From the NCBI RefSeq assembly GCF_000186885.1, contig NC_014972.1, positions 1,620,001 through 1,652,000 of the forward strand: a stretch of DNA of 32,000 nt. Reading direction: 5' to 3'. Under the pieces are notes generated by a model. The model worked only from the letters and a program-made list of their open reading frames with translations, did not search any database and was not told the DNA's origin. The translations under genes and the position numbers were made by a program. This stretch comes from Desulfobulbus propionicus DSM 2032 (GTDB taxonomy: Bacteria; Desulfobacterota; Desulfobulbia; Desulfobulbales; Desulfobulbaceae). Below are positions 9,717 to 32,000 of this stretch, one piece after another. Each line of letters begins with the position of its first letter. Positions within the stretch are counted from its first letter, which is position 1.

Positions 9717-9755
9717 GGGGTTAGATGCTTTTTCGAGCGTCTAACCCCTTTTTTT
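9717..9755 (+). terminator. Rho-independent terminator after tRNA-Pro
   Basis: 12-bp stem GGGGTTAGATGC / GCGTCTAACCCC (one G-U pair), 8-nt loop, followed by TTTTTTT (9749-9755). Confidence 0.8.
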
Positions 9756-9918
9756 ATACCCACCCCTGTGTTTTCAATGGCTCCAGCCGATTCCCATGTT
9801 TAACATGCTGTTTTAACGCATCATTTTTTCAAGTTGCACTCATTTTTAATCGTTGTATATCGTTGGTTATCGTTTCCTGTGCACGGAAATTTACACTCAA
9901 ATTTACACACGAAAAACG

Positions 9919-10962: not shown

Positions 10963-11018
10963 AGAAGAACGTTTTTTTGTGGACGGACTCTTGGGTAGGC
11001 GCTTGGAAAGATAAATTA

Positions 11019-12564: not shown

Positions 12565-13539
12565 ATTTGAAAAACAATTCGATCTGCCAGCGCTCTTTGT
12601 AGATTTGGGTGATCTCCTTGGCTTTCAGGTGGTGGGCGTTGGTGACAAACCGATACTCGATGCCGGTCGCCGGGTCGGTATAAGCGACCAGACGCAACGG
12701 CTGCTCAACCCCTTTGAGCCGGATGGTCTGATCGTTGGTGATCCCAGCGCTCCTTCGCCCGGCCCGTTTAAGCAGGTATTGGACATCGGCATTGCTTTTC
12801 AGCCGCGAAACAAAGAAAACGGCGTTAGCGGTCAGGTCGCTGTGCCAGCGGTAATCGGTGAAGCCGCGATCAATGCAGACAAAGGAGCCCTTGGGGAGTT
12901 GCAGGGTCCTGGCCCAGTTGATCTCGTGTTCCTTCCCCTTGGTCATGTCCATGAAGACCGGAAGATGCCCATCGGCATCCAGGCCGACATGCAGTTTGAT
13001 GGCTCCCTTTTTCTGCCTGAATTCGGCCCAGGGAAAGGCGGCGAGGCAAAGGTTGATCACCGTGGCATCAAGCAGGTACAGCTTGCCTTTGAAGGAGAAG
13101 CGGTGTTTGGGCGCTACCAGTTGGCACCTGTCCAGCAGCTTGGCGAACAGTGCTTGAGAGCAGCGGGTTGCTCTGCGTTGACCCGAGCCAAGGTTGCTTT
13201 AGTGGTTCGCTTCATACCAAGATGATAGAGCCGCTTGCCCTGTGCCATGAGATTATCGGTGATATCCCGGAGGCTTTTTCTGCCGGAAAGCTGGCCGATC
13301 AGCATGGCTAGGAATTGACTCCAGCGGTTGTAGGAACGGAAATTCTGTCCCGCGTGATGCAGTTGAGCCAGTGTGTCAAATTCATATCTTGGGACAAGTG
13401 TAAGCAATTGCTTGAGGACGGTATCGCTATAGGCCATGGCTCGGATCTCCTTGGTTTGTATGATCTTTATGCAAAATCATTATACCGCCAAGCAGCTCTC
13501 CGAGCCTCCTTATCTTCATTTTTTATGAGACAGCAGTGA
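12565..13539 (-). mobile_element. 5' two-thirds of a second IS4-family element (called IS-B), inverted relative to its 3' part
   Basis: The minus-strand ORFs 13114-13437 (MAYSDTVLKQLLTLVPRYEFD..., DUF4372-like N-terminus) and 12521-13060 (...FVCIDRGFTDY...YKERWQIELFFK) form one transposase with an internal frameshift near 13150-13162. The coding sequence breaks exactly after ELFFK at 12565, where IS-A abuts. The terminal repeat TCACTGCTGTCTCATAAA is the reverse complement of 13522-13539. Confidence 0.8.
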
Positions 13540-13549
13540 TTCATAATAA

Positions 13550-16697: not shown

Positions 16698-16890
16698 CAT
16701 CCAGGTGGAGAACAAAGTCTGTGTCATTTTTTCTCAGTTGGGGGGGTAATGATTTCAATGCCTACACGGCAAAACGCTGTTTTTTCGAATATAAAATGAA
16801 AAAACTCTCTTGACTTCATATTTGTAATCGAAGAGACTTGTCAAGGTCGCCTGCTTACAACACTTACCTCAACCGAATTTGCTTCCTCCC

Positions 16891-17931
16891 ATGTCTAATC
16901 GTCACCATATTTTTTCGTTTACCGTCGCGTTGATCGTCCTGGTCAACATATCACCTGCCATCGGCGCAACCACGGAACCACAAACCAAACAGTTTGTCCA
17001 GCTCCTGCCCAAACCAGGCAAACAGGACACGAAAAATGCCCCGCTCCAACTCAACATCAAGAATGGTAAGAACGGCGTTCTCCTCGCCATTACCTTCGCC
17101 GGAGAAAAAATCACCCTTGAGAAAGGCGCGCAACCTGCTCCTCCTGGGGGTATGTACACTGTCTCGCTCGACGGCTCCATGGTACTGCAGGAAACCTTTA
17201 GCGAACCAACCCTGCACATCGAAAAACCATTGCCCATGCAAACTCTGGGGAACGGTGATCATGTTGTGCGCTGCGAGGTACACTACTCCATCGGCAAGAC
17301 CTATGAGGCAGAACTCCCCTTCAGTTTCGATGCAACGCCGATCATCACCCTGGAAAAACCTGGTTCTAAATCACCTGTACCCGATCCTTTGGTGGGCTTC
17401 CAATTTTACAACGAAAAGCAAGAGGTCGTCGGCTTTCTCGATGTCGCTGTGGATGAAAGATCGCTTGGGGTAACGCAAATCACCTCTCAGGCCAATGGTG
17501 AGAAGAAACCGCTGTCGCAATGGACGGGCAAGCCGATCTCCATCGCGGAACTCCCTCCAGGACAGCATCTGATCAGATTAACAGCCACGGGAACCAATGG
17601 CGGCGAAAGCGTCCAATTTGTTCCTTTCGAGGTGGAAGCCTTGCCGATGCTCAATGTGGACAAAAACAAGGAAGGAGCCATGGAAAGCATCAAAGCCACT
17701 TTTCTTCAGGCCAGCAGTGCCTACTCCGGCTCGGTGGAGATTTTCTACCAACATGGCGTCATCCTGTCTCTTCAAAGCAAAGAACCATCTGTGCTCATCA
17801 AAAAAAGCGACATAGTGCAGGCGTTTGCACAGCACAAACTGTCACTTCCTACCAAACCGGTCCCCCTGGTTGTGGGGCTTCGCTCCGCCAACAATACGGA
17901 GAACTGGCAGACAATCCTGTTTTTGCCGTAA
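16891..17931 (+). CDS. Secreted hypothetical protein with Ig-like beta-sandwich features (first gene of the rhs module)
   Basis: Signal peptide MSNRHHIFSFTVALIVLVNISPAIG/ATTEP. Recurring motif L-x-x-G-x-H-(V/L)-(V/I)-R (LGNGDHVVRCEV, LPPGQHLIRLTATGTNGGES), similar to the next gene. The start is ambiguous (TTG 16879 or ATG 16891) and no clear SD is present. Confidence 0.6.
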   Translation: MSNRHHIFSFTVALIVLVNISPAIGATTEPQTKQFVQLLPKPGKQDTKNAPLQLNIKNGKNGVLLAITFAGEKITLEKGAQPAPPGGMYTVSLDGSMVLQETFSEPTLHIEKPLPMQTLGNGDHVVRCEVHYSIGKTYEAELPFSFDATPIITLEKPGSKSPVPDPLVGFQFYNEKQEVVGFLDVAVDERSLGVTQITSQANGEKKPLSQWTGKPISIAELPPGQHLIRLTATGTNGGESVQFVPFEVEALPMLNVDKNKEGAMESIKATFLQASSAYSGSVEIFYQHGVILSLQSKEPSVLIKKSDIVQAFAQHKLSLPTKPVPLVVGLRSANNTENWQTILFLP

Positions 17932-17968
17932 CTCTTTCTCACCTTTCTTTTCAAGCAAGGAAAACCGA

Positions 17969-19681
17969 ATGTGCTGCTTTGCTCTGATCAGACGGCTGAG
18001 TGTCTGGATTCTGACCGTTCTTAGTATTTTTGCATTTATACCGGCATTAGCCGCCGCCACTAGTGCCTCTATTTCTATCAGCGGGCAGGAGGGTGCGCTC
18101 CCCCTGCAAGCATCAGGTGAATTCAGCGAATACACTTTTTGTGACGGAGCTCACCCGCCCAACTGCTGGACAGATAATTCAGGATCATTGACGGTTCGCC
18201 AAACATTCCCGAGCGGCGGTACCTATTCCATAGGAAGCAAATCCGGCAAAGGTTCGGCTGACTGGTCCACCACCTTAGATACCGGTGCCATGGCCCAGGG
18301 GACACACACATTTGTCGCAACAGCTTGCGACGTAAAAGGAAATTGCAGTTCTAACTCCCAAAGTATCACAATCGACAACACGCCGGCAGTAACGAGCACT
18401 GTAAGCAAAACGGAAGGTGAGCTTGATATCAAGGGAACCGTAGATTTCAAAGAATATGTCGGCGGCAATGAAGGATCCGTTACCCTTTATCACATATACC
18501 CTAACAACTCATATGCATATCGGATCCAGAGCAAATCCTTTGAAGGAACAAACGTCATAAACTGGACCTATCAGGAGATTGTTGGAGCCATTGCCGATGG
18601 GGGATCATGGGCACAAGGAAAGCACATCATTCGAGCCGTCGCCACAGCACACAATGGCGCCTCAACTTCTATTGATATCCCCATCACCATCGATAACACC
18701 CCGGAGGTTACGGGTTCAGCCAATAAAGTTGAAGGTGATCTCAATATTAAGGGGACAGTCGATTTCAAGGAATACGTCAGCGGCAATGAAGGATCCGTTA
18801 CCCTTTATCACATATACCCTAACAACTCATATGCATATCGGATCCAGAGCAAATCTTTTGAAGGAACAAACGTCATAAACTGGACCTATCAGGAGATTGT
18901 TGGAGCCATTGCCGATGGGGGATCATGGGCACAAGGAAAGCACATCATTCGAGCCGTCGCCACAGCACACAATGGCGCCTCAACTTCTATTGATATCCCC
19001 ATCACCATCGATAACACCCCGGAGGTTACGGGTTCAGCCAATAAAGCTGAAGGCGATCTCGACATTAAGGGAACAGTCGATTTCAAGGAATACGTCAGCG
19101 GCAATGAAGGATCCGTCACCCTCTATCACATATACCCTAACAACTCATATGCATATCGGATCCAGAGCAAATCCTTTGAAGGAACAAACGTCATAAACTG
19201 GACCTATCAGGAGATTGTTGGAGCCATTGCCGATGGGGGATCATGGGCACAAGGAAAGCACATCATTCGAGCCGTCGCCACAGCACACAATGGCGCCTCA
19301 ACTTCTATTGATATCCTCATCACCATCGACAACACGCCGGAGGTAAAAATCATCGGTCCTCGATGTTATGCCGACCTCACCTGTGACATTCTGGGCACGG
19401 TGCAATTCAAGGAATATGTCGGTGGAGCCGAGGGGAGCGTCACGCTGTATCTGAAGGATGTCAGCGCCTCCAGCTACAGCAGTTACGGCAGCAAGAGCTA
19501 TGAGGGAACGAGCATCAACTGGAAATATGCCGACTTCGCCGGAGCCCGGATAAGCAAGGCGACCTGGGGTGGCAGAGAACTGATGGTGCAGGTGGTGGCC
19601 AAGGCCGCCAACGGCGCCACGATGACCAGCTGGCAATACTTGATGATTCCGGCGCTTGGCTGCCCAATCCCGTTACGGTAA
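17969..19681 (+). CDS. Secreted protein of five tandem ~106-aa Ig-like domains
   Basis: ATG at 17969 gives MCCFALIRRLSVWILTVLSIFAFIPALAAATSAS (signal peptide), in frame with ORF 17825-19681. Five repeats each end in a G-x-H-x-x-x-x-V-A-x-A-x-N-G...I-T-I-D-N-T-P motif. It starts 37 bp after the previous gene and ends 22 bp before the rhs ATG. Confidence 0.75.
   Translation: MCCFALIRRLSVWILTVLSIFAFIPALAAATSASISISGQEGALPLQASGEFSEYTFCDGAHPPNCWTDNSGSLTVRQTFPSGGTYSIGSKSGKGSADWSTTLDTGAMAQGTHTFVATACDVKGNCSSNSQSITIDNTPAVTSTVSKTEGELDIKGTVDFKEYVGGNEGSVTLYHIYPNNSYAYRIQSKSFEGTNVINWTYQEIVGAIADGGSWAQGKHIIRAVATAHNGASTSIDIPITIDNTPEVTGSANKVEGDLNIKGTVDFKEYVSGNEGSVTLYHIYPNNSYAYRIQSKSFEGTNVINWTYQEIVGAIADGGSWAQGKHIIRAVATAHNGASTSIDIPITIDNTPEVTGSANKAEGDLDIKGTVDFKEYVSGNEGSVTLYHIYPNNSYAYRIQSKSFEGTNVINWTYQEIVGAIADGGSWAQGKHIIRAVATAHNGASTSIDILITIDNTPEVKIIGPRCYADLTCDILGTVQFKEYVGGAEGSVTLYLKDVSASSYSSYGSKSYEGTSINWKYADFAGARISKATWGGRELMVQVVAKAANGATMTSWQYLMIPALGCPIPLR
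18371..19324 (+). repeat. Three near-identical in-frame tandem repeats of 318 bp
   Basis: The ATCGA(C/T)AAC (IDN) landmark recurs at 18371, 18689, 19007 and 19325, exactly 318 bp apart. Shadow ORFs at 18579 and 18897 (+) give almost identical 99-aa translations. Diverged units flank the block at about 18053-18370 and 19325-19650. Confidence 0.95.
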
Positions 19682-19703
19682 CCATTTCCTATCGATAACG
19701 GTC

Positions 19704-22700
19704 ATGAAACGCTTCTTTCGCCCCATACAGTGTTTGCTCCTCTGCCTCGGGATCCTCCTTGCCGCGATCCCCTCCCTTGCCGGCAGCAACCCGTTTATTT
19801 CCAATCACGGTATCAACTTCTCCACTGGCAACAAGTTTATCCGTGAACGCGACGTCAGCCTGGCCGGGCCGGTGGAGCCGCTCAACTTCTCCCGTTACTA
19901 CAACAGCCAGAGCAAGGAGGACACGAGCTTTGGCTACGGCTGGTCATTCTCCGAGCTTGAGTCCCTGCAGATCGAGACCGGTCTTGAACTGATCGTCTAC
20001 ATCCGTACCGACGGCCACCTGCTGCACTTCACCGCCAACGGCACGACCGACCAGTGGGCCAATGAAGTCGGCCCCCGGGCACTGATCACCAAGACCGAGG
20101 AAGGCTACCTGCTGCGCCTGCCCGATGGACGCGCCCGGCAGTTCAACTTCGCGGGACAACTCCTTTTCCGGAAAGACGCCAACGGCAACCAGATCAACTA
20201 CACCCATGAAGGAAAGAATCTCAAGAGCATTACCGATAACTTCGGCCGGACTCTGAGTCTGGGGTACAACGAGGCGGGCAAGGTTGCCACGCTCACCGCT
20301 CCAATCGGTGTGTTCACCTACGCCTATGACTCCAACGGCAATCTGGTTTCCGTCACCCGCCCCGACGGCAAGCAGCGCACCTATCTCTACGAAAACGCCA
20401 CCAATCCGCATTGCCTGACCGGCATTGTCGACGAAACCGGCATTCGTGTGCTCACCGCTACCTACGACACCATGGGCCGGGTCGTTACCTCGGCCTTCGC
20501 CAACAACCGTGAGAAGGTGACCATTGCCTATCAGGCGGGTTTCAAGCGGGTGATCACCGACAGCCTGGGAGCCGTCACCACCTACCAGCTCGAATCCTGG
20601 AATGGCGTGGCCCAAGTCAAGTCGTTCACCGGTCCCGGTTGTTCCTCCTGCGGGTCCGACAGCGCCAGCCAATACACCTACGACCTGCGCCAACAGGTGC
20701 TTTCGCAAACCGACGCACGGGGCGTTACCAGCACCTACGCCTATGACGAACAGGGCAACCGGATCCGCGAGACCCGCGCCATCGGGACCGCCCAGGAATA
20801 TACGACCACCACCACCTACACGCCCAATTTTGACAAACCGGCGACCATCACCGAACCATCGACAGGCAACCCCGGGCAGTACAAGGTGACGTCCTTCTCC
20901 TATGACGCGGCGGGCAACCCGCTTACCCGCACGGAAACGGGATACAACGCCAGTGGAGCGATCAGCCGAACAACCACCACCGTCTATGACAGCCTGGGTC
21001 GCATCGTCTCCATCGACGGACCAAGAACCGATGTCAACGACATCATCACCTTGAGCTATTATGACAACACCCCGGGCCAGAGACTCAACCGGGGCTTTCT
21101 CCGCAGCGTCACCAATGCCGCTGGTCACCAGGTGGTATTCAGCGACTACAACAACCAGGGACTGCCCGGACAAATCACCGATGCCAACGGGCAAACAACC
21201 CTGCTTGCCTACAATGCGCAAGGCCGCCTCATCGAACGGCAGAGCAGCGGCCGTGTCACCCAATACCGCTACAACGACGCCGGCGCCTTGACGTCCGTGA
21301 TTCTTCCCGGCAACCGCACCCTCTCCTACAGCTATAACGCTGCCGGTCAAGTGGCTCAGGTCACCGACCAAATCGGCAACACCATTAGTTATGACTATGA
21401 CAGTGAAGGCCGCGTGCTGCGCCGGGAAGTTCGCGACCCGGAGGGCAACCTGACCACCGCGCTCTCCGCCGAATATGACCAGGCCGGCCGGATCCTCAAG
21501 CTGACCCATCCCGACGGCAGCAACGAGCAACGCAGCTATGACCAGACGGGCAATCTGACGGAACTGACCAACGGCCTGGGACAAACATCCGCCTACAGTT
21601 ATGACGTCCTGAACCACATGAGCGCGGCGGATGAACCAGCCGGCAATGTCAGCTTCCGTTACGATCTCCACGGCAACCTGAGCGCTGTCACCGACGCAAA
21701 AGGCAGAACAACCCGGTACACGTATGATGATTTCGGCAACCGGGTTGCCGAGGTCTCACCGGATACCGGCACGGTCACCATGCGCTATGACGCCGCCGGC
21801 AACCTGATCGAGAAAACCGACGCCAACACTATCACCGTCTCCTACGTCTATGATGCGCTCAACCGGTTAACCGGGATCTTCTATCCGGATAACGCGCTGA
21901 ACGTGGCGTACACCTACGATGCCGGAAGCAACGGCAAGGGCCGGTTGACCGCTGTGCGCGACAACAGCAGCAGTTATGGCTTCAAATACAACGCCTTTGG
22001 CGAATTGAGCGCCGAGACCGCCGCCATCACCGACCACACCTTCACCACCAACTACAGCTACAATGACAACGGCGAGCTGGTGGCCGTTACTTATCCCAGC
22101 GGCCGGATCGTCACCTCCGAGCGCGACGCCGCCGGCAACGTCACCGCGATCCGCAGTGTCTACCAGGGGCAAACCAGTATCGTCGCCGAGAGCATCGCCC
22201 GTCTGCCCTTCGGCCCTCCCACGGCCATGACCCTGGGAAACGGCCTGTCCGTGGCTTCAACCTACGATCAACTCTACCGCCTGACGTCCATACAAGCCGG
22301 CGGACTCATGCACCGGAGCTACAGCTATAACGCGATCAGCCAGGTAACCGCCATCGCCGACCAGCTGGCCAGCGCCAAATCCCAAACCTTTGCCTACGAC
22401 GAGGCCAGCCGCCTGCTCTCCGCTCAAGGCGTCTACGGAGCAATCAACTATACCTATGATGAGGCCGGCAACCGATTGACCAGCGTCCAGGACGGGGCCA
22501 CCTCAACCTATACCTATGCCCAATCCAGCAATCGATTGCAGCGTATCCAGGGTGCCGAGTCCATTGACTACAGCTACGACGCGGCCGGCAACCCGCTCAG
22601 CAAGGGCAACCAGGCCTACACCTGGAACCAGGAGAACCGGCTGGCACGGGTCACTCTCAACAACGCGGTGGCCGGCCAATACAGCTACGACTTCCGGGGG

Positions 22701-25700
22701 TTGCGAAAAACAGCCGTCACCACAGCCGGCACGACCCTGTTTCTGCACGATCCGAGCGGTAACCTGCTGGCCGAGGCCGATATCCAGGGGACCATCCTGC
22801 GGGAATATGTCTACCTCGATGGCCAGCGGTTGAGTGCGTTTGACTATACCGCCCTGCCCGCGTTCGCCGTCACCGTGACCACTTCGTCCGGGGTTGTTGT
22901 CGAGGGGGTTCAGGCCTATGCCTTTGACGAGCAGAACCAATACACCAATCTCCATGTCGCCACTGACGCCGAGGGCAAGGCGACGTTCAATCGCGATGAC
23001 TTTGGCGAGGGCGCATACCGGTTCCGGGTCGATTACCTGGGGCATCAGTTGTGGACCGAACCGGTGACGGTCAAGACCAGCCAGGGTGTCAGCCTGGTGA
23101 TCAGCGAGACGCCAGTCGCCGTGCAGGTACCGACAAGCGATGCCACCCAGGCCGGCGCCACGGTTTACGTGTTCAGCGAATCGGGTGAATACCTGGGAAT
23201 TTCCGGGACCATTGACGAAACGGGCAAGGTCTCGTTCACCCTGCCCGTGGGAGGCAAATACACGTTCCGCACGGAACTCTTCGGCCAGCTGTACAGCAGC
23301 GCCCTGACCACGGCGGCTGCCGGGGCCTCGGTCACGGTCGATTCCGGTGGCGGGGTTCTCACCGTACAACTCGCCGATGACGCCAGTGCGATCCTTTCGG
23401 GGATCAAGACCACGCTCCACAGTTCAGGGGGGGCCTACCTGGGCCTCACCCGGACCAGCGATACCACCGGTAAGGTCAGCTATACCATGCCTTCCGGGAG
23501 CTATCTGCTCAAGGCCGAGTTCCTGGGCTATCCGTTCTGGAGCACCACGCTGAGTGTCACCTCCGACACGGCCGCCACCCTCACCATTCCCCGCCGTGAC
23601 CTCACCGCGCGCGTAACCCTGCAATACGAGGGTGCGGCCACGCCACTGAGCTCGGTGCCCTGCACCCTCTTCACCCCTGAAGGGGTGGAATTGGGCCAGC
23701 AGCGGAGCACCAATACCCAGGGCGAGGCCATATTTTCCGTGCCGCAAAAGCCTTACCGGATCAAGGCCACCTATCTGGCCCAGGAATATTGGTCGGCCGA
23801 CGTGACCTGGGAAAACGCTCCCATCGTCATCGCCGGCGGCAAGGCGGTGGTCAATACGACCAACAACGGCATGCCGCTGGCAGGGGCCACCCTGCGGGTG
23901 TATACCGCCACGGGGACCGATACCGGCATAACAGCTCTGACCGACAGCGAGGGAAAAACCACGTTCACCCTGCCCGGAGGTTCGTACCGTTTCCAGGCGA
24001 CCCATGAAGGCCAACTGTTCTGGAGCGGGAATCTGACCGTCACGCCCGACCAGACCATCCACACCACTATCTCCACCGGTGGCGGTTCCTATGTGCTGAA
24101 CGTGACCAACGGAACAGCGGGGATCGCCGGGGTCAAGACCATGCTGTTCTCGGCCTCCGGCTCCTACCTCAGTCAGTCGGTCACCACCTCCAGCACCGGC
24201 GAGGCGGCGTACAACCTGGCCGATGGCAGTTACCGGGTCACAGCCAATTACCTGGGGTATGAGTACAGCACCGATCCGTTCACCGTGCCCCTGATCGCCT
24301 CCCAGACCCTGGCCATTCCCCACCTGGCCCACACGGTCTCGGTGGTCCGGAGTTACCAGAACGATCGCGTCCCCCTGGCCAACATCGAGGCCACCCTGTG
24401 CTCCGTGGACGGATCCCCGCTGGCGCTCACCGTCGCCACCGGCACCGACGGCACCCTGCAATGGAGTCTGCCGGCACAGGCCTATGCGGTTCAGGCGCGC
24501 TATCTGGGGCGAACCTATCTCAGCTCGACCTTCACCAACGATGACCCTACCGTACTCATCCCCGAAGGCCTGGCCAGGGTGACGCTCCTTCAAGGCGGGA
24601 CAGCCCTGGCGAACACCCAGGTCCTTGCTATCAGCGAGAGTGATCCCGATCATCCCAAAAGCCTGATCACCAACGACAGTGGCGTGGCTGAATTCCGGCT
24701 GCCGGCCGGTTCCTACACCTTCAAGGCGACTCTGGGCGAAACCGTATACCAGGGTATCGGCACAGTCGTTGCTGATCAGATCACCAACGTCACACTCAAT
24801 CTGGGGACAAGTACCCTGTCGATCACCGTGCGCACGAACGAAACCACCGTCCTGCCTGGCGTTGTCTGCTCTCTCTATACAGCCGAAGGCGAACCGCTCA
24901 ACCGCAGCGCCACCACCGATGGTTCCGGCGTGGCCTCCTTTGCGGTGGAGGCCGGGACCTATCGAGTCAAGGCCTGGCATCTGGGCTATGACTTCACCAG
25001 CGAGGTGATCGAAACACCGGTGGTTCTCTCTGCCAGCCTGACCATCCCCCATCGCGATCTAGCCGTCCACGTGCTCAAGGATCAGGGGGACGGCGTGGAA
25101 CCGGTCTCCGGGCTGCGCTGTTATCTCTACTCCCTGGGCGAAGGCGAGGGGCTGAACGCCACCGAACTCCATGCCGACAGCGACGATCAGGGCATGGTTC
25201 ATTTTGTGGTGCCCGAGGAGCGGGCCTATTACGCCGTGGCCACCTTGCTCGGCCGCGAGTTCATCAGCGTGGAAAGCGAGGGCCAGGCCACCCTGACCAT
25301 CGAGCTGGGCACGATGACGGTTACCGTGCGCGACGACAGTGCGGTCACCGAGACCAATCCCGATGGTTTGGTACAGGGAGCAGTGGTGACGCTCTACACC
25401 AATGAAGGGACAGCCCTGGGCCAGGAACTGAGCACCGGGGCCGACGGCCAGGTCTGCTTCACCCTGCCCGAGGGCAGCTACAGACTGCGCGTCGGCTATA
25501 ACGATCAGCAGTTCTGGAGCGGGGTGATCAATACCTATCCCCTGGGCGACACGCCGGTGGAAATGATCAATGGCTCCGGCGGAATACTGAGCCGGCTGCA
25601 CGATCCCCATCCCTCCCTCTGGCACGGAACACCGCCGCAATACCGGCCACTATTGGCCCTGGCCTCAGGCTCGCTGGCCGGGATGCTGACCACCACGTCA

Positions 25701-26483
25701 ACACCCGTTGCCGCCACACCCCAGGTGGTCTATTATCTCAACGATCACCTGGGCACAGCGCAACTGCTCGTCGACGCCGCAGGGACCGTGATCTGGCAGG
25801 GTGACACCCAGCCCTTTGGCCAGGTGACTGAGGTGATTAACCAGATCGACCACCGGTTCCGCTTCCCCGGCCAGATGGTTGATCCTGAGAGCGGGTTGTA
25901 TTACAACTGGAACAGGTTCTATGATACTTCCACCGGGCGATACCTATCTCCTGATCCGATTGGGTTGGATGGGGGGATGAATTTTTATGCTTATGTCGGA
26001 GGGGATCCGGTCAACTGGGTGGATCCGTGGGGATTGGCAAAATGCACTTATTCAATATCAAAACACACGTTGATTTGTGTTTCAAATACTACAGATGATA
26101 TAAATTTTATAGGTCCTCACGAGCAAAGGCAAGTTGGGCCTGAAGGTGTTTTTTCTGGTCAAGGTGAATGCCAAGATGTTCCTTCTGACGAATGCACTGA
26201 TGACAAATACAATGGTCCAATTGTACCAGGTAACTATAATATAAATGAAGACAATAGACCTGGTCATAATGATTGGTTCAGGTTAGAGCCATCACCAAAA
26301 ATTCCCGGTTGGAAGGTCCTGTCAGGATTAGAACGAGGTGGTTTCGCATTTCACCTTGGAAGCAGGTCGGCTGGTTGCATAAATGCGAATAAAAATAATC
26401 AAGAAACGGTACAACAGTTTAGAAATTTACAGAATTTGATAAAACGAGAAAGTGGTTCCAACACTTTAAAGGTTGGGCCATGA
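19704..26483 (+). CDS. RHS/YD-repeat polymorphic toxin: signal peptide, YD-repeat region, 11-domain beta-sandwich array, RHS core (DPWGL), DUF2778/Tlde1-like C-terminal toxin
   Basis: ATG at 19704 gives MKRFFRPIQCLLLCLGILLAAIPSLAG/SNPF. There are many YD repeats (YxYDxxGNL, e.g. YAYDSNGNLVSV, YSYDAAGNPLTR, YRYDLHGNLSAV). The RHS-associated core reads VVYYLNDHLGTAQLLVDAAGTVIWQGDTQPFGQV...RFPGQMVDPESGLYYNWNRFYDTSTGRYLSPDPIGLDGGMNFYAYVGGDPVNWVDPWGL, with DPWGL at 26022-26036. No PAAR-like N-terminus recognised. Confidence 0.93.
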   Translation: MKRFFRPIQCLLLCLGILLAAIPSLAGSNPFISNHGINFSTGNKFIRERDVSLAGPVEPLNFSRYYNSQSKEDTSFGYGWSFSELESLQIETGLELIVYIRTDGHLLHFTANGTTDQWANEVGPRALITKTEEGYLLRLPDGRARQFNFAGQLLFRKDANGNQINYTHEGKNLKSITDNFGRTLSLGYNEAGKVATLTAPIGVFTYAYDSNGNLVSVTRPDGKQRTYLYENATNPHCLTGIVDETGIRVLTATYDTMGRVVTSAFANNREKVTIAYQAGFKRVITDSLGAVTTYQLESWNGVAQVKSFTGPGCSSCGSDSASQYTYDLRQQVLSQTDARGVTSTYAYDEQGNRIRETRAIGTAQEYTTTTTYTPNFDKPATITEPSTGNPGQYKVTSFSYDAAGNPLTRTETGYNASGAISRTTTTVYDSLGRIVSIDGPRTDVNDIITLSYYDNTPGQRLNRGFLRSVTNAAGHQVVFSDYNNQGLPGQITDANGQTTLLAYNAQGRLIERQSSGRVTQYRYNDAGALTSVILPGNRTLSYSYNAAGQVAQVTDQIGNTISYDYDSEGRVLRREVRDPEGNLTTALSAEYDQAGRILKLTHPDGSNEQRSYDQTGNLTELTNGLGQTSAYSYDVLNHMSAADEPAGNVSFRYDLHGNLSAVTDAKGRTTRYTYDDFGNRVAEVSPDTGTVTMRYDAAGNLIEKTDANTITVSYVYDALNRLTGIFYPDNALNVAYTYDAGSNGKGRLTAVRDNSSSYGFKYNAFGELSAETAAITDHTFTTNYSYNDNGELVAVTYPSGRIVTSERDAAGNVTAIRSVYQGQTSIVAESIARLPFGPPTAMTLGNGLSVASTYDQLYRLTSIQAGGLMHRSYSYNAISQVTAIADQLASAKSQTFAYDEASRLLSAQGVYGAINYTYDEAGNRLTSVQDGATSTYTYAQSSNRLQRIQGAESIDYSYDAAGNPLSKGNQAYTWNQENRLARVTLNNAVAGQYSYDFRGLRKTAVTTAGTTLFLHDPSGNLLAEADIQGTILREYVYLDGQRLSAFDYTALPAFAVTVTTSSGVVVEGVQAYAFDEQNQYTNLHVATDAEGKATFNRDDFGEGAYRFRVDYLGHQLWTEPVTVKTSQGVSLVISETPVAVQVPTSDATQAGATVYVFSESGEYLGISGTIDETGKVSFTLPVGGKYTFRTELFGQLYSSALTTAAAGASVTVDSGGGVLTVQLADDASAILSGIKTTLHSSGGAYLGLTRTSDTTGKVSYTMPSGSYLLKAEFLGYPFWSTTLSVTSDTAATLTIPRRDLTARVTLQYEGAATPLSSVPCTLFTPEGVELGQQRSTNTQGEAIFSVPQKPYRIKATYLAQEYWSADVTWENAPIVIAGGKAVVNTTNNGMPLAGATLRVYTATGTDTGITALTDSEGKTTFTLPGGSYRFQATHEGQLFWSGNLTVTPDQTIHTTISTGGGSYVLNVTNGTAGIAGVKTMLFSASGSYLSQSVTTSSTGEAAYNLADGSYRVTANYLGYEYSTDPFTVPLIASQTLAIPHLAHTVSVVRSYQNDRVPLANIEATLCSVDGSPLALTVATGTDGTLQWSLPAQAYAVQARYLGRTYLSSTFTNDDPTVLIPEGLARVTLLQGGTALANTQVLAISESDPDHPKSLITNDSGVAEFRLPAGSYTFKATLGETVYQGIGTVVADQITNVTLNLGTSTLSITVRTNETTVLPGVVCSLYTAEGEPLNRSATTDGSGVASFAVEAGTYRVKAWHLGYDFTSEVIETPVVLSASLTIPHRDLAVHVLKDQGDGVEPVSGLRCYLYSLGEGEGLNATELHADSDDQGMVHFVVPEERAYYAVATLLGREFISVESEGQATLTIELGTMTVTVRDDSAVTETNPDGLVQGAVVTLYTNEGTALGQELSTGADGQVCFTLPEGSYRLRVGYNDQQFWSGVINTYPLGDTPVEMINGSGGILSRLHDPHPSLWHGTPPQYRPLLALASGSLAGMLTTTSTPVAATPQVVYYLNDHLGTAQLLVDAAGTVIWQGDTQPFGQVTEVINQIDHRFRFPGQMVDPESGLYYNWNRFYDTSTGRYLSPDPIGLDGGMNFYAYVGGDPVNWVDPWGLAKCTYSISKHTLICVSNTTDDINFIGPHEQRQVGPEGVFSGQGECQDVPSDECTDDKYNGPIVPGNYNINEDNRPGHNDWFRLEPSPKIPGWKVLSGLERGGFAFHLGSRSAGCINANKNNQETVQQFRNLQNLIKRESGSNTLKVGP
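22860..25585 (+). repeat. Array of 11 tandem ~80-90-aa beta-sandwich (CarboxypepD_reg / prealbumin-like) domains inside the rhs gene
   Basis: Each unit follows the pattern (hydrophobic strand)-G-(V/A)-x-(V/L)-x-L(Y/F)-x-x-x-G-x-x-x-x-x-x-x-T-(D/N)-x-x-G-x-x-x-F-x-(L/V)-P-x-G-x-Y-x-(F/V)-x-A-x-x-x-G. Examples: TDSEGKTTFTLPGGSYRFQATHEG, TNDSGVAEFRLPAGSYTFKATLGE, TDGSGVASFAVEAGTYRVKAWHLG. Confidence 0.8.
26037..26483 (+). other. C-terminal toxin domain CT1: DUF2778 / Tlde1-like L,D-transpeptidase-fold
   Basis: 148 aa after DPWGL, in visibly AT-rich DNA. Motifs: VFSGQGECQDVPSDECTDDKYNGPIVPGNYNI (compare the SG-x-G...N-x-P...GPIPPG-x-Y pattern of DUF2778) and ERGGFAFHLGSRSAGCINA (a His...S-x-G-C-I-(N/R) YkuD-like catalytic motif). 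Confidence 0.55.
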
Positions 26484-26935
26484 AAGTCGTCAAGCGAATA
26501 ATCATAATGTTATCTTTAAGCTTAGTTGTATTAATGCTAAGTTTTTTATTAAAAAATTATGTGTTTGATAAAGCAATCTTACACTTAAAGGAAGAAAATC
26601 ATGAATATGCTCTTTATTATTTGAAGCCATTGGCATTTGTTGGGTATTCTGAAGCGCAAAAAATTCTTGGTGAATGTTTTGCTTTTGGCCATGGTGTTGA
26701 AAAAAACAAGGAAAAAGCTAAATACTGGTTAAGACGTGCTCATGATGGCAGTGACTGTAACAGCGATCGATGTATCGCTGCCGATTTATATTTTATCGGT
26801 GAAAATTATTTAGAAGGAGTTGGTGTTGAGATTAATCGTGAAGAAGCTATGAATTGGATTAAAATGGCGGCAGATAACGGCTACCCCAAGGCTGTTGAAT
26901 ATATGTCTCAACCCCGGAGCCCTGAAGCTCGATAG
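26480..26935 (+). CDS. Sel1-like repeat protein with N-terminal membrane anchor; cognate immunity candidate for CT1
   Basis: Its ATG overlaps the rhs stop (ATGA at 26480-26483). N-terminal hydrophobic segment IIIMLSLSLVVLMLSFLL. Sel1/SLR motifs: AQKILGECFAFGHGVEKNKEKAKYWLRRA and YFIGENYLEGVGVEINREEAMNWIKMAADNGYPKA. AT-rich like CT1. Confidence 0.75.
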   Translation: MKVVKRIIIMLSLSLVVLMLSFLLKNYVFDKAILHLKEENHEYALYYLKPLAFVGYSEAQKILGECFAFGHGVEKNKEKAKYWLRRAHDGSDCNSDRCIAADLYFIGENYLEGVGVEINREEAMNWIKMAADNGYPKAVEYMSQPRSPEAR

Positions 26936-26990
26936 CTTGAAATTAGGGGAGGCACCAAGATGTTTCTCTCCCACCTGGCGCTCACCCACC

Positions 26991-28880
26991 AGCGGCAACC
27001 CGACCGTACTCATCCCCGAGGGCTTGGCCAGGGCGACACTGCTCCAGGGTGGAGCTGCCCTGGCGAACACCCAGGTGGTGGCGATCAGTGACAGCGATCC
27101 CGACCATCCCCAAAGCCTGACCAGCGATGCCAGCGGCGTGGCCGAATTGCGTTTGCCGGCCGGCTCCTACACCTTCAAGGCTACCCTGGGTGAAACCGTG
27201 TACCAGGGCATCGGCACGGTGCTCGCCGACCAGACCACCAACGTCACCCTCAATCTGGGGACAAGTACCCTGTCTATCACTGTGCGCAAGAATGAGACCA
27301 CCGTCCTGCCTGGCGTTGTCTGCTCTCTCTATACGGCCGAAGGCGAACCGCTTGACCGCAGCGCCACCACCGATGGTTCCGGCGTGGCCTCCTTTGCGGT
27401 GGAGGCTGGGACCTATCGGGTCCAAGCCCGGTATCTGGGCTATGACTTCACCAGCGAGGTGATTGAAACACCGGCGGTTCTCGCCGCCAGCCTCACCATC
27501 CCCTATCGCGACCTGGCCGTTCGCGTGCTCAAGGATCAGGGGCAAGGCACGGAACCGGTCTCCGGGCTGCGCTGTTATCTCTACTCCCTGGGGGAAGGCG
27601 AGGGGCTGAACGCCACCGGGCTCCATGCCGACAGCGACGATCAGGGCATGGTCCATTTTGTGGTGCCCGAGGAGCGGGCCTATTACGCCGTGGCCACCCT
27701 GCTCGGCCGCGAGTTCATCAGCGTGGAAAGCGAGGGCCAGGCCACCCTGACCATCGAGCTGGGCACGATGACGGTTACCGTGCGTGACGACAGTGCGGTC
27801 ACCGAGGCCAATCCCGATGGTTTGGTGCAGGGGGCGGTGGTGGAGCTCTACACCAGTGAAGGGACGGCTCTGGGCCAGGAACTGAGCACCGGGGCCGACG
27901 GCCAGGTCTGCTTCACCCTGCCCGAGGGCAGCTACAAGCTGCGCGTCGGCTATAACGATCAGCAGTTCTGGAGCGGGGTGATCAATACCTATCCCCTGGG
28001 CAACACGCCGGTGGAAATGGTCAATGGCTCCGGCGGTATACTGAGCAGGCTGCACGATCCCCATCCCTCCCTCTGGCACGGAACACCACCGGAATACCGG
28101 CCACTATTGGCCCTGACCTTGGGATCACTGGCCGGGATGCTGACCACCACGTCAACGCCCGTTGCCGCCACGCCCCAGGTGGTCTATTACCTCAACGATC
28201 ATCTGGGCACGGCGCAACTGCTCGTCGACGCCACAGGAATAGTCATCTGGCAGGGTGACGCCCAGCCCTTTGGCCAGGTGACTGAGGTGATCAACCAGAT
28301 CGATCACCGATTCCGCTTCCCCGGCCAGATGGTTGATCCTGAAAGCGGGTTGCATTACAACTGGAACAGGTTTTATGATCCTGCCACTGGGAGGTACCTA
28401 TCACCTGATCCGATTGGGCTGGATGGGGGGACGAATTTGTATGGGTATGTCGGAGGGGATCCGGTGAACTCGATTGATCCGCTTGGATTATTTAATCCCA
28501 CCAAAGGAATTGCTTCACTTGGCAATGCAGCAAACGCTGGTCGGCTGTACGCTGGAGGTGTTTTGAAACTTGGCGCAGCAGCTGGTTTGACAAGCACTGG
28601 GTTAGGGGCACCTGCTGGAACTGGAGTCGCAGCGCTTGGTACATGGAACTTGTGGTCTGCACAATCTGCCTGGAATCGCTCGTTACAACAATGGAATGAG
28701 GCTTGGAATGAAAGTTGGGACGACGCAACGTGGAAAAATCTTCTGGGTATATTGCCCTTTGGTACCGAGTTTGATGACCCTTGTGAGCCTTCGGCATGGG
28801 ATGTCCTGAAAGCTAAAGCAAAGAATTTCAAGGATAAACCTGACGAAATAATCAGAGAAATAGGAACTTGGGGATTCTAA
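26991..28880 (+). CDS. Orphan rhs C-terminal module 1 (array units 8-11 + RHS core + alternative toxin CT2); no credible own start
   Basis: From about 26998 it is colinear and highly similar to main-gene 24547-26036 (PTVLIPEGLARATLLQGG... to ...GGDPVNSIDPLGL, with DPLGL at 28476-28490). It then diverges into an AT-rich 129-aa tip: FNPTKGIASLGNAANAGRLYAGGVLKLGAAAGLTSTGLGAPAGTGVAALGTWNLW... Confidence 0.85.
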   Translation, partial: SGNPTVLIPEGLARATLLQGGAALANTQVVAISDSDPDHPQSLTSDASGVAELRLPAGSYTFKATLGETVYQGIGTVLADQTTNVTLNLGTSTLSITVRKNETTVLPGVVCSLYTAEGEPLDRSATTDGSGVASFAVEAGTYRVQARYLGYDFTSEVIETPAVLAASLTIPYRDLAVRVLKDQGQGTEPVSGLRCYLYSLGEGEGLNATGLHADSDDQGMVHFVVPEERAYYAVATLLGREFISVESEGQATLTIELGTMTVTVRDDSAVTEANPDGLVQGAVVELYTSEGTALGQELSTGADGQVCFTLPEGSYKLRVGYNDQQFWSGVINTYPLGNTPVEMVNGSGGILSRLHDPHPSLWHGTPPEYRPLLALTLGSLAGMLTTTSTPVAATPQVVYYLNDHLGTAQLLVDATGIVIWQGDAQPFGQVTEVINQIDHRFRFPGQMVDPESGLHYNWNRFYDPATGRYLSPDPIGLDGGTNLYGYVGGDPVNSIDPLGLFNPTKGIASLGNAANAGRLYAGGVLKLGAAAGLTSTGLGAPAGTGVAALGTWNLWSAQSAWNRSLQQWNEAWNESWDDATWKNLLGILPFGTEFDDPCEPSAWDVLKAKAKNFKDKPDEIIREIGTWGF

Positions 28881-29042
28881 ATGTCAACCTTTACATTTAT
28901 TACAATTGCTCTCTCTGTAGTTTTTATGATTTACTGCACAGTACTTTATGTTCGGGATCTTAAGGTCGGAAAAGACTCATTTATCAAGAAAACAGGACGG
29001 TGGCTTAAAAACGTAATCGATGTTTTTTTTGGTGCTGGATAG
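28881..29042 (+). CDS. 53-aa single-pass membrane protein; immunity candidate for CT2 (below ORF-track size cutoff)
   Basis: The ATG at 28881 directly abuts the orphan-1 stop (TAA ATG). Translation: MSTFTFITIALSVVFMIYCTVLYVRDLKVGKDSFIKKTGRWLKNVIDVFFGAG*, with TAG at 29040-29042. One clear hydrophobic helix. AT-rich like CT2. Confidence 0.55.
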   Translation: MSTFTFITIALSVVFMIYCTVLYVRDLKVGKDSFIKKTGRWLKNVIDVFFGAG

Positions 29043-29086: not shown

Positions 29087-30979
29087 GCCCTGCCCAACAC
29101 CCAGGTCATGGCGATCAGCGACATCGATCCCGACCATCCCCAAAGCCTGACCACCGACGCTGGCGGCGTGGCCGAATTCCGGTTGCCGGCCGGCTCCTAC
29201 ACCTTCAAGGCCACCCTGGGTGAAACCGTGTACCAGGGCATCGGCACGGTGCTCGCCGACCAGACCACCAACGTCACCCTCAACCTGGGGGCCAGCACCC
29301 TGGCGATCACCGTGCGCACGGACGAAACCACCGTCCTGCCCGGTGTGGTCTGCTCCCTCTATACAGCCGAAGGCGAGCCGCTTAACCGCAGCGCCACCAC
29401 CGATGGTTCCGGCGTGGCCTCCTTTGCGGTGGAGGCTGGGACCTATATGGTCCAAGCCCGGTATCTGGGCTATGACTTCACTCTCGAAGCGATCGAAACA
29501 CCAACGGTTCTCGCCGCCAGCCTCACCATCCCCCATCGCGACCTGGCCGTCCGCGTGTTCAAGGATCAGGGGAACGGCGCGGAACCGGTCTCCGGGCTGC
29601 GCTGTTATCTCTACTCTCTGGGCGAAGGCGAGGGGCTGAACGCCACCGGGCTCCATGCCGACAGTGACGATCAAAGCATGGTTCATTTTGTGGTACCCGA
29701 GGAACGGGCCTATTACACCGTGGCCACCCTGCTCGGCCGCGAGTTCATCAGCGTGGAAAGCGAGGGCCAGGCCACCCTGACCATCGAGCTGGGCACCATG
29801 ACCGTCACCGTGCGCGACGATAGCCAAATCACCGAGGCCAATCCCGATGGTTTGGTACAGGGGGCAGTGGTGACGCTCTACACCAATGAAGGGACAACCC
29901 TGGGCCCGGAACTGAGCACCGGGGCCGACGGCCAGGCCTGCTTCACCCTGCCCGAGGGCAGCTACAAGCTGCGCGTCGGTTATAACGATCAGCAGTTCTG
30001 GAGCGGGGTGATCAATACCTACGCCCTGGGCAACACGCCGGTGGAAATGGTCAATGGCTCCGGCGGCCTGCTCAGCCGGCTGCACGATCCCCATCCCTCC
30101 CGCTGGCACGGGACGCCACCGCAATACCGGCCACTATTGGCCCTGGCCTCGGAGTCGCTGGCCGGGATGCTGACCACCACGTCAACCCCGGTTACCGCCA
30201 CGCCCCAGGTGGTCTATTATCTCAACGATCACTTGGGCACAGCGCAACTGCTCGTCGACGCCGCAGGGACCGTGATCTGGCAGGGCGACACCCAGCCCTT
30301 TGGCCAGGTGACCGAGGTGATCAACCAGATCGATCACCGATTCCGCTTCCCCGGCCAGATGGTTGATCCTGAGAGCGGGTTGTATTACAACTGGCACAGG
30401 TTTTATGATCCTTCCACGGGGAGGTACCTATCCGCTGACCTGATTGGGTTGAATGGGGGGATTAATCTCTTTGCTTATGTTGGTGGCGATCCGGTGAATT
30501 TGATCGATTTAGAGGGACTTGCTGGTTGCAAGGTACTGTTTCCCAACATGCCTATTGATACAGGTATGGGTTTTACATCAACAAGTCTTGGAGGTCACGG
30601 AGGAATTCTTACCTATGATACCAATGGTACAACTAAGTATTACGAGTATGGGCGTTATCCAGCGAGCCAAGCTGTTGGATCAGGCTTGCCTTCAGATGAA
30701 GGCAATGTTCGTCGACTTAGCGTACCCAACCTACAGCTAGATAAAAACGGTCAACCAACCCCTGAGTCACTGGCGGCATTGAAAGAGTTTCTTGAGAAAA
30801 AAGCTGGGAAGGATACAGATTCTGAGTTGACTTGTGACGCTAATGCTGATGAGAAAAAAATTCTTGATTATATTGATAAAATTTCCAAAGATCCGAAGCG
30901 ACCTAAATATAAATGGAATCCATGGAACAGTAATCATTGTCGCGATTTTGCTACACGGGCATATAATTCAGGGCGATAA
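29087..30979 (+). CDS. Orphan rhs C-terminal module 2 (array units 8-11 + degenerate RHS core + alternative toxin CT3)
   Basis: Similarity to the main gene begins at about 29087 (ALPNTQVMAISDIDPDHPQSL versus ALANTQVLAISESDPDHPKSL at about 24603) and runs to GGDPVNLIDLEGL (30506-30520). An AT-rich 152-aa tip follows (AGCKVLFPNMPID...GGHGGILTYD...NSNHCRDFATRAYNSGR). The in-frame ATG at 29108 has no SD. Confidence 0.85.
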   Translation, partial: ALPNTQVMAISDIDPDHPQSLTTDAGGVAEFRLPAGSYTFKATLGETVYQGIGTVLADQTTNVTLNLGASTLAITVRTDETTVLPGVVCSLYTAEGEPLNRSATTDGSGVASFAVEAGTYMVQARYLGYDFTLEAIETPTVLAASLTIPHRDLAVRVFKDQGNGAEPVSGLRCYLYSLGEGEGLNATGLHADSDDQSMVHFVVPEERAYYTVATLLGREFISVESEGQATLTIELGTMTVTVRDDSQITEANPDGLVQGAVVTLYTNEGTTLGPELSTGADGQACFTLPEGSYKLRVGYNDQQFWSGVINTYALGNTPVEMVNGSGGLLSRLHDPHPSRWHGTPPQYRPLLALASESLAGMLTTTSTPVTATPQVVYYLNDHLGTAQLLVDAAGTVIWQGDTQPFGQVTEVINQIDHRFRFPGQMVDPESGLYYNWHRFYDPSTGRYLSADLIGLNGGINLFAYVGGDPVNLIDLEGLAGCKVLFPNMPIDTGMGFTSTSLGGHGGILTYDTNGTTKYYEYGRYPASQAVGSGLPSDEGNVRRLSVPNLQLDKNGQPTPESLAALKEFLEKKAGKDTDSELTCDANADEKKILDYIDKISKDPKRPKYKWNPWNSNHCRDFATRAYNSGR

Positions 30980-30981: not shown

Positions 30982-31323
30982 ATGAAGAAATTGACGCTGT
31001 TTCTTTTGCTTTCTCTATCTGTTAGTATAATTTGCTGTGCTTTTTTTGCCTATTTTTGGATAGATAGGTCTATCTCTCTTGACTATCTCCAACAATCTTA
31101 TGAAACTGAGCGAAGTTCTGTAGCAAATTTACAAAAATTAATTGCTTCGGAATGGAAGGGTTTACCTGAAGGGCAAGTACAAAAAAAACTAGAGCAAGTA
31201 GCAGCTAAATCGCCAGAACGTCGCATTGTTGTAAAAAAAGAGGGTTCGATCATTTGGTTCGATCAGGTTCCTTTCAATATCGAGCAAGGAAGACTCGATA
31301 GCGTGGGGCCAAGTACTCGTTAA
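30982..31323 (+). CDS. 113-aa membrane-anchored protein; immunity candidate for CT3
   Basis: It starts 2 nt after the orphan-2 stop. N-terminal hydrophobic anchor MKKLTLFLLLSLSVSIICCAFFAYFWI, then a soluble domain. AT-rich. Confidence 0.6.
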   Translation: MKKLTLFLLLSLSVSIICCAFFAYFWIDRSISLDYLQQSYETERSSVANLQKLIASEWKGLPEGQVQKKLEQVAAKSPERRIVVKKEGSIIWFDQVPFNIEQGRLDSVGPSTR

Positions 31324-31651: not shown

Positions 31652-32000
31652 TCCTCGGCCTCCGGCTCCTACCTCAATCAGTCGGTCACCACCTCCAGCA
31701 CCGGCGAGGCGGCGTACAACCTGGCCGATGGCAGTTACCGGGTCACGGCCAACTATCCGGGGTATGAATACAGCACCGATCCGTTCACCGTCCCCCTGGT
31801 CGCCTCCCAGGCCCTGGCTATTCCCCACCTGGCCCACACGGTCTCGGTGGTCCGGAGCTACCAGAACAACCGCGTGGCCTTGGCCAACATCGAGGCCACG
31901 CTGTGCACTGTGGACGGTACCCCCCTGGCGCTCACCGCCGCCACCGGAGCCGACGTCACCCTGCAATGGAGTCTTCCGGCACAGGCCTATGCGGTTCAGG
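31652..32000 (+). CDS. Orphan rhs module 3, 5' portion (array units 6-7 onward); continues beyond the window
   Basis: Not in the ORF track because it has no stop in the window. The frame starting at 31655 reads SASGSYLNQSVTTSSTGEAAYNLADGSYRVTANYPGYEYSTDPFTVPLVASQALAIPHLAHTVSVVRSYQNNRVALANIEATLCTVDGTPLALTAATGADVTLQWSLPAQAYAVQ. This is colinear with main-gene 24148-24500. Confidence 0.85.

Follow-up and report, generated by a model that had tools for sequence, protein, structure and literature searches.

A gene of Desulfobulbus propionicus DSM 2032 encodes a predicted Rhs/YD-repeat polymorphic toxin in which an array of 11 beta-sandwich domains is inserted between the last YD repeats of the cage wall and the RHS core. 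It lies within a 32,000-nucleotide (nt) stretch of contig NC_014972.1 (assembly GCF_000186885.1, positions 1,620,001 to 1,652,000 of the forward strand), hereafter the window, in which all nt positions are counted; amino acids (aa) of the protein, the window Rhs, are counted from the ATG at 19704, its likely start (MKRFF...). The array follows a three-domain super-repeat, precedes the predicted cleavage site behind which the cargo lies, and exceeds the published cavities of such cages several times in volume. On balance, we consider it probable that it forms an external, segmented beta-sandwich arm on a Sec-exported Rhs cage, which tethers or positions the cage at a cell surface. The assignment of the protein to the Rhs polymorphic toxins follows from its YD repeats, a core with cleavage motifs, and variable toxin, immunity and orphan cassettes. 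Its layout is as follows.

19704..26483, + strand: intact Rhs polymorphic-toxin gene, 2259 aa, in a single open reading frame (ORF, 19656-26483); Pfam and NCBIfam.
19704..19787, + strand: putative Sec-type signal peptide, aa 1-28, MKRFFRPIQCLLLCLGILLAAIPSLAGS, read by eye from the sequence.
19806..22847, + strand: DUF6531 (aa 35-109) and YD-repeat shell wall (aa 110-1048); Pfam and NCBIfam.
22857..23339, + strand: array units 1-2, N-terminal cap pair A1-B2 with an SGGG hinge at its end; hidden Markov model (HMM) of the units.
23340..24071, + strand: tri-domain module 1, units 3-4-5 in the order C-A-B; AlphaFold2 (AF2) model and module alignment.
24072..24806, + strand: tri-domain module 2, units 6-7-8, with a TGGG hinge at its start; HMM, AF2 and module alignment.
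24807..25574, + strand: tri-domain module 3, units 9-10-11 (10 and 11 of terminal type); HMM and module alignment.
25575..25724, + strand: conserved return linker, aa 1958-2007; alignment of inserted-array homologues.
25725..26036, + strand: RHS core with the self-cleavage motifs YYLNDHLGT ... DPIGL ... DPWGL; PF03527 and TIGR03696.
26037..26480, + strand: C-terminal toxin of 148 aa and 16.3 kDa, with a Tlde1-like L,D-transpeptidase fold; PF10908.

The YD repeats are matched by RHS_repeat PF05593 in 13 stretches (Pfam, E=1.5e-83) and by TIGR01643 in 12 (NCBIfam). The core is recognised through the RHS motif PF03527 (aa 2009-2043, 36.7 bits) and the RHS-associated core TIGR03696 (aa 2036-2111, 88.6 bits against a cut-off of 32.5), with the predicted self-cleavage motifs DPIGL...DPWGL at aa 2086-2111, and the toxin through Tlde1_dom PF10908 (aa 2149-2252, 51.5 bits against a cut-off of 30.1). 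Long antisense ORFs run across the array (e.g. 23424-25052 on the minus strand), which we attribute to the high GC content of the coding strand and do not regard as genes.

Number and family of the array units

An earlier note, made from the letters of the window alone, had described 11 tandem units with a CarboxypepD_reg/prealbumin-like signature at 22860-25585. An HMM trained by iteration on the same protein recovers exactly 11 units, each with an independent E-value below 1e-20, and places the array at aa 1052-1957, nt 22857-25574 (906 aa, 95.6 kDa, isoelectric point 4.5). The units start at aa 1055, 1135, 1216, 1304, 1378, 1460, 1546, 1621, 1707, 1790 and 1877, so that successive starts are 74-88 aa apart. 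Within the whole window Rhs, YD-repeat region included, this self-trained HMM found nothing comparable outside the array. The proposed signature held up as well: the Pfam family CarboxypepD_reg matches eight stretches of the window Rhs (E=2.8e-38; 130.6 bits, cut-off 32.3), AF2 models the units with a predicted local distance difference test (pLDDT) score of 80-95, and Foldseek returns CnaB, pilin and adhesin matches. Overlapping CarboxypepD_reg, the Pfam families SpaA, bMG3, CarbopepD_reg_2 and SdrD_B match the array too. We conclude that the units are CarboxypepD_reg/prealbumin-like beta-sandwiches of the PF13620 clan.

At the DNA level, Tandem Repeats Finder detected no tandem repeat across the array, which implies that the repeat is old and visible at the protein level only. 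Self-BLASTP of the array region returned the identity match alone, and a PDB sequence search with the array gave a single weak match, 6FWV.

A three-domain super-repeat

The units had also been proposed to fall into three classes that recur with period 3. In the window Rhs alone this pattern is weak: the mean Smith-Waterman score between units is 88.8 at lag 3 against 65-77 at the other lags (permutation p=0.08), with class 3/6/9 clearly recognisable, class 2/5/8/11 moderately so and class 1/4/7/10 only weakly. Average-linkage clustering of the units is dominated by three divergent ones. However, period 3 is significant in four homologues of the same architecture (P0004, P0005, P0006 and P0020; permutation p 0.0-0.004), and when the window units are compared with theirs, the best match lies at the same position or is shifted by 3 in 41 of the 44 comparisons. 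Furthermore, 22 tri-domain modules of 243-248 aa each form a near-gapless alignment, in which three landmarks recur: TGGG where a module begins, TIPH(Q/R) where its first two domains meet, and W.D..V.I.EG where the second domain meets the third. Unit 10 carries a lineage-specific insertion of ~12 aa, which brings the third module to 260 aa in the window lineage. By eye, no isopeptide-type lysine is seen among the invariant columns of the 22-module alignment. As judged by these alignments, the three-domain super-repeat is real; what had to be revised is its phase, the module running C-A-B (units 3-4-5, 6-7-8 and 9-10-11) with units 1-2 as a cap.

The idea that the chain needs 11 units (2+3+3+3) to come back to its starting point was dropped, since the 11-unit cassette is also found where closure is needless, and 7- and 8-unit variants exist at the same insertion site.

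Two AF2 models bear on how the units are arranged, one of the array and its surroundings (aa 960-2115, from a 17-sequence alignment) and one of a single module (aa 1210-1453, from the 22-module alignment). In the former, all 11 units are modelled as beta-sandwiches with a pLDDT of 80-90, and the linker and core fall below 50, as expected when the shell is absent from the model. Continuous long strands cross the borders 3/4, 6/7 and 9/10 (aa 1297-1308, 1540-1551 and 1783-1793) as well as 4/5, 7/8 and 10/11 (aa 1372-1387, 1616-1630 and 1861-1877). Strand breaks occur at the borders 2/3, 5/6 and 8/9, which correspond to SGGG, TGGG and LGTS; the first of these lies at aa 1212-1216, and the LGTS hinge has a pLDDT below 50. 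The single C-A-B module (units 3-4-5) is modelled with a pLDDT of 94.5 and a predicted TM-score (pTM) of 0.82, its strands 89-99 and 161-175 spanning the C/A and A/B domain borders. These models indicate that the three domains of a module would be held in a fixed arrangement, and we read the predicted array as [1-2]-hinge-[3-4-5]-hinge-[6-7-8]-hinge-[9-10-11].

The best Foldseek matches of the array, at the level of domains, are to arrays that serve as stalks or extenders, namely the neck of the GhpA grappling hook (9FLP, E=1.6e-17), Bacillus anthracis TIE, the MG domains of alpha-2-macroglobulin, Gram-positive pilins, and SdrD/Cna B repeats. Since TMq is at most 0.35 for all matches, no solved structure shares the same three-domain geometry.

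Insertion point and return linker

The sequence before the array, REYVYLDGQRLSAFDY, ends at aa 1048 (SAFDY), and the core motif VVYYLNDHLGT starts at aa 2008, which bears out both the flanking sequences and the gap of ~960 aa given in the earlier note. In solved Rhs proteins and the closest relatives, the equivalent loop has 8-10 residues. Among the closest RHS cores in the databases, which include entries named Desulfobulbaceae, Ca. Electrothrix and Desulfocapsaceae, the '...YLDGEPLA' strand is separated from 'YYFINDHLGT' by only 8-9 residues in those of sufficient length for a check, against 956 in the window Rhs. We then aligned an array-deletion construct, in which aa 641-1048 are joined to aa 2004-2125 (aa 1049-2003 removed), to solved Rhs cages. 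It aligns without a gap across the junction to 8H8A (E=2e-51) and 7Q97 RhsA (E=1.5e-48), and likewise without a junction gap to S. bongori Rhs, Tse5 and Tse15. In these alignments the array is a clean insertion, behind the last YD hairpin and ahead of the RHS core, at the point where it had been placed before.

In every inserted-array Rhs, the last unit is followed by a return linker, ~60 aa long in the family, with the consensus L.L..LA..LTNDPNP.RFDG.PP.Y.P....ASL.SL.GLL.Q and the strongly conserved motif TNDPNP.RFDG.PP.Y...ASL.SL.GLL. It has diverged in the window lineage, where it reads RLHDPHPSLWHGTPPQY.

All inserted homologues carry the array directly before the core that forms the plug, and a dedicated, conserved linker joins unit 11 to the first strand of the core. 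Together with the predicted stiffness of the modules, which could transmit force, this would allow for a mechanical or conformational trigger, whereby binding to the arm or a pull on it is passed to the plug strands and helps the cage to open and release its toxin. This reasoning is purely topological, however, and the same cassette stands N-terminal in other Rhs proteins and occurs in non-Rhs proteins, which implies a function independent of the plug. Moreover, Tc toxins release their cargo at the opposite end of the cocoon. We therefore regard such a trigger as quite improbable.

Position relative to the cage

The location of the array can be inferred from its size and from the order of the chain. 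Its packed volume is ~116,000 A3, against ~19,700 A3 for the toxin. Published cavities measure ~25,000 A3 for type VI secretion system (T6SS) Rhs and ~37,000 A3 for Tc BC (10.1101/2024.02.26.582050), and ~44,000 A3 for a bacterial teneurin-like protein (PMC13018210), so that the array amounts to 3-5 times the measured Rhs/YD cavities. Furthermore, the array is N-terminal of the DPWGL cleavage site and the cargo C-terminal of it. Being too large for the cavity and upstream of the cleavage site, the array must be outside the cage, and would still be attached to it after cleavage.

The earlier note had considered that the array might be part of the encapsulated cargo, an option that the same two observations rule out. 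It had also named, among the outcomes that would refute its view, that the units are divergent YD repeats forming part of the shell. This is excluded by Pfam, the unit HMM, and the separate beta-sandwich folds seen with AF2 and Foldseek, and in addition the alignment to solved cages is complete without the array. Nothing beyond its location within an Rhs gene speaks for either shell or cargo, and we give these two explanations practically no credence.

Distribution and evolution of the cassette

The nearest genome loci are those of a Desulfobulbus sp. metagenome-assembled genome (MAG, 92% identity) and of D. rhabdoformis DSM 8777 (75%). The four homologues used above share the insertion point and 11 positionally orthologous units at 35-43% identity to the window Rhs; positional orthology was found for unit 1 and for unit 2 in three of the four homologues compared each, and in most full-length representatives. 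Inserted array and return linker recur together in proteins named from Deltaproteobacteria, Desulfatiglandaceae and Dehalococcoidales MAGs. Searched with a profile of the linker, 1.84 billion representatives yield only 114 clusters, 81 of them at E<=1e-10, and the inserted-array Rhs architecture is rare. Ten full-length representatives span 1676-2747 aa, and carry 11 units in seven cases, 7 in two and 8 in one; most of those with a complete N-terminus have a signal-peptide-like start. In the 8-unit array, the units correspond best to positions 1-4 and 8-11, so that one three-unit period is missing.

Outside the inserted-Rhs setting, the array keeps the same grammar, units of types 1 and 2 standing at its front and units of types 10 and 11 at its end; most non-Rhs and N-terminal arrays open with the former two types. 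In its stand-alone form (P0009, P0011, P0013, P0017 and P0023; 11 or 13 units), a signal peptide and one or two YD repeats precede the array, with no cage or toxin, so that these proteins resemble a free-standing version of the insert. In its C-terminal form, the array closes proteins that carry chitobiase-C, PhoD_N, cohesin or FN3 domains, and these proteins end 12-17 aa past the last unit. In its N-terminal form, it stands before DUF6531 in other Rhs proteins (P0026, P0061 and P0065). Thirteen-unit arrays and some 10-unit arrays (P0009, P0012 and P0055) show a similarity peak at lag 5, not lag 3, with the unit order 1-2-3-4-5-6-2-3-4-5-6-10-11, which implies that the cassette grows by duplicating different blocks in different lineages. 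To judge by this range of settings, the array is a mobile, autonomous cassette. With the array so commonly in terminal position, a function independent of the host protein is probable, binding being the simplest one.

The array tail has a dN/dS of 0.18-0.23 between the main gene and its orphan copies described below, and the core one of 0.11-0.17; the tail is under purifying selection comparable to that on the core.

These data also bear on a plainer explanation, in which the array is a passive decoration or spacer outside the cage that binds nothing specific, and sets a distance, shields from proteases or is merely tolerated. That the conserved residues are mostly core or structural ones, that the number of units varies (7, 8 and 11) at the same site, and that adhesins and pilins commonly employ domains of this family as extenders would all agree with a spacer. 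However, in the many non-Rhs proteins in which the array is terminal there is nothing beyond it to space, and neither the purifying selection nor the conservation, at 35-43% identity, of the return linker and of specialised units at either end of the array would be expected of a passive element. As such, we consider a mere spacer rather unlikely, and continue to favour an arm that binds.

Locus context and orphan cassettes

Upstream of the Rhs locus lie thrS, infC, pheS and pheT, then tRNA-Pro(GGG) at 9630-9706, and beyond it the gene of a phage-type integrase (9853-10962) and several fragments of DDE transposases, the tRNA-to-transposase stretch covering 9630-15081. The Rhs locus thus appears to sit in an island that was inserted next to the housekeeping cluster thrS-infC-pheST. 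Directly around the Rhs gene, the following features were found.

17966..19681, + strand: secreted protein with five ~100-aa immunoglobulin (Ig)-like (weak Big_13) repeats, the middle three almost identical; sequence and Pfam.
26480..26935, + strand: Sel1-repeat protein with an N-terminal membrane anchor; PF08238, E=5.6e-16.
26987..28880, + strand: orphan cassette 1, units 8-11, linker and core with an alternative toxin without family; 90.7% DNA identity to 24533-26035.
28881..29042, + strand: 53-aa ORF with a hydrophobic helix and no family, directly after the orphan-1 toxin.
29087..30979, + strand: orphan cassette 2, units 8 (part)-11, linker and core with a TseH-like toxin; 90.1% identity to 24603-26014.
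30982..31323, + strand: Imm58 immunity protein for the TseH-like toxin; PF15581, E=5e-57.
31654..32000, + strand: third orphan copy, start only (units 6-7), running off the window; 92% identity to 24149-24495.

The Ig-repeat gene ends 23 nt before the Rhs start, and a counterpart with 76% identity is located directly upstream of the Rhs gene in locus L001, which makes its product a possible partner of the Rhs protein. Upstream of it is a 350-aa ORF (16879-17931, + strand) with a signal-peptide-like N-terminus and no Pfam match.

The conservation of a secreted Ig-repeat protein immediately upstream, and the signal-peptide-like starts of full-length members that carry no known outer-membrane export signal, raise the question whether the array serves export or assembly instead, being recognised by an unknown outer-membrane route, or docking on the Ig-repeat protein into a surface structure. 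Against this stand the confirmation of the possible upstream partner only in a close Desulfobulbus relative (L001), and the distant locus L004, in which no such gene is called upstream of the split Rhs gene. We see a role in export or assembly as a long shot.

From its position, the Sel1 protein is the probable immunity protein for the Tlde1-like toxin. Across these two genes (26001-27000) the GC content falls from ~0.61 to 0.40, as is typical of horizontally exchanged toxin/immunity modules. The 53-aa membrane protein is probably the immunity protein for the orphan-1 toxin; a gene like it in size and position, the sequences being unaligned, also stands behind P0003, which carries the orphan-1 toxin, in L001. 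The homology tracts of the orphans (26987-28489, 29087-30498 and 31654-32000) start inside the array, at units 8, 8 and 6, and those of orphans 1 and 2 stop at 26014-26035 of the main gene, around the DPWGL cleavage site. Since the orphan-1 toxin is the main-gene toxin in the relative GCA_053528815 (P0003), there is direct evidence of toxin switching. That the orphan cassettes recombine within the array means that the homology tract used for such switching can reach far upstream of the classical core.

Both identifiable toxins, the Tlde1-like and the TseH-like one, are predicted from their sequences to attack peptidoglycan, and Tlde1 is a characterised effector family that acts in the periplasm (PMC9638812). 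This suggests that delivery need only cross the outer membrane of the target.

Proposed function of the array

So how could the array function? Of what had been suggested earlier, an external stalk or receptor-binding region appears to fit the evidence best. In such an arrangement, the chain would exit the cage wall after the last YD hairpin, form the 11 prealbumin-like domains, and return via the ~60-aa linker to the RHS core, which would plug the cage and cleave off the toxin. The arm would consist of a two-domain cap (units 1-2) followed by three stiff C-A-B rods, with Gly-rich hinges in between. Because it is upstream of the DPWGL cleavage site, it would stay covalently on the cage after the 16-kDa Tlde1-like toxin has been cut free inside. 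As the same cassette is the terminal element of many exported proteins, the array itself most likely binds something, e.g. a component of the cell surface or matrix. The arm may thereby tether or position the cage on the producer or a neighbouring cell, from where the wall-attacking toxins (Tlde1-like and TseH-like) could reach the neighbour's periplasm without a type VI system.

Several points weigh against this proposal, and should be taken into account. The residues conserved across units (YLG, DYLG.QFWS) look structural, not like a binding pocket. The pTM of the whole-array model is only 0.34, so that the shape of the arm and its place on the cage are not fixed by the model. The occurrence of 7- and 8-unit variants at the same site implies that no precise arm geometry is required. 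A protein of 2259 aa would also have to cross the outer membrane of the Gram-negative Desulfobulbus, and T6SS genes could sit outside the 32-kb window. Finally, in three relatives gene calling breaks the giant Rhs gene into two or more ORFs, split within or before the array (L001, 540-7262; L003, 6961-12973; L004, 4852-14338); some copies may thus be decaying, although assembly or frameshift errors in long repeats would explain the splits equally well.

A bolder version would have the arm act as both sensor and lever of a T6SS-independent device, in which binding to a neighbour pulls the plug via the return linker, opens the cage at the contact site, and releases wall-degrading toxins into the neighbour's periplasm. 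We hold this to be speculative and improbable; if true, no release trigger built into a bacterial Rhs cage would have been described before it.

How Rhs cages that do not depend on a T6SS reach their target cell and open there is poorly understood. The inserted-array family, in which an arm would be paired with periplasm-acting toxins, gives a concrete case in which surface display, target recognition and the opening of the cage can be tested, and the cultured D. rhabdoformis has a related gene, which is apparently fragmented. Moreover, Desulfobacterota and Dehalococcoidia of anoxic habitats attach the cassette to many exported proteins, so that identification of its ligand would inform more than one toxin.

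Comparison with known systems

In the literature searched, no description of an Rhs protein with an inserted array was found, in line with what the earlier note had supposed, and the database entries are named only 'RHS domain-containing protein'. With the known T6SS and Sec Rhs toxins (RhsA 7Q97, 8H8A, Tse5, Tse15, and WapA as the Sec-exported type), the window Rhs has in common the YD cage and the DPxGL core, as well as a variable C-terminal toxin, an adjoining immunity gene and downstream orphan cassettes. It differs from them by an insertion of 956 aa (11 domains and linker) in place of a loop of 8-10 aa, and by an orphan homology tract that extends 1.1-1.5 kb back into the array. T6SS Rhs cages have been described as smooth, without protrusions (10.1101/2024.02.26.582050), and instead of the PAAR or VgrG of those proteins the window Rhs has a signal-peptide-like N-terminus. 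Pfam detected neither PAAR nor VgrG in it, and T6SS genes were found neither in the 32-kb window nor in L004; on that scope, it does not group with T6SS-delivered Rhs.

Among the bacterial teneurin-like proteins, some of which occur in Thermodesulfobacteriota, Sec-exported YD-shell toxins like the window Rhs are found. Their N-terminal adhesion domains are thought to govern surface display (PMC13018210), and include variable beta-sandwich domains, carboxypeptidase-regulatory-like ones among them (PMC6425310, PMC13018210). These adhesion domains are N-terminal to the scaffold, whereas the array is inserted before the core. Furthermore, teneurin-like proteins have TTR, FN-plug and an NHL propeller, none of which was detected in the window Rhs: Pfam gave no match to NHL or FN-plug, and TEN_YD-shell scored 11.7 bits against a cut-off of 50, which sets it apart from this group. 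It is likewise set apart from Tc BC, as Pfam gave no match to a TcB beta-propeller or SpvB N-terminal region, and its likeness to TcdB2-TccC3 is confined to the core.

Lectin domains embedded among RHS repeats were noted earlier (PMC3482391), and in SGS1 of mosquitoes, Ig-like carbohydrate-binding module and lectin domains inserted in the Rhs/YD shell decorate its outside and have been proposed as receptor domains (PMC9935623). The shells of SGS1, TcB/TcC and teneurins thus carry folded insertions on the outside, as we propose for the array. In these, however, the insertions are single domains or propellers elsewhere in the shell, not an 11-domain, period-3 array at the boundary of wall and plug.

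In fold and tandem order, the array resembles the CnaB/prealbumin-like stalks of Gram-positive pilins, MSCRAMM adhesins and the GhpA neck, which are its best structural matches. It differs from them in being carried by a toxin cage, and in a three-domain arrangement without counterpart among solved structures (TMq<=0.35). Domain insertions into YD shells are already known; what sets the array apart is its size (11 domains, 96 kDa) and internal grammar, together with a return linker of its own and a place where wall and plug meet.

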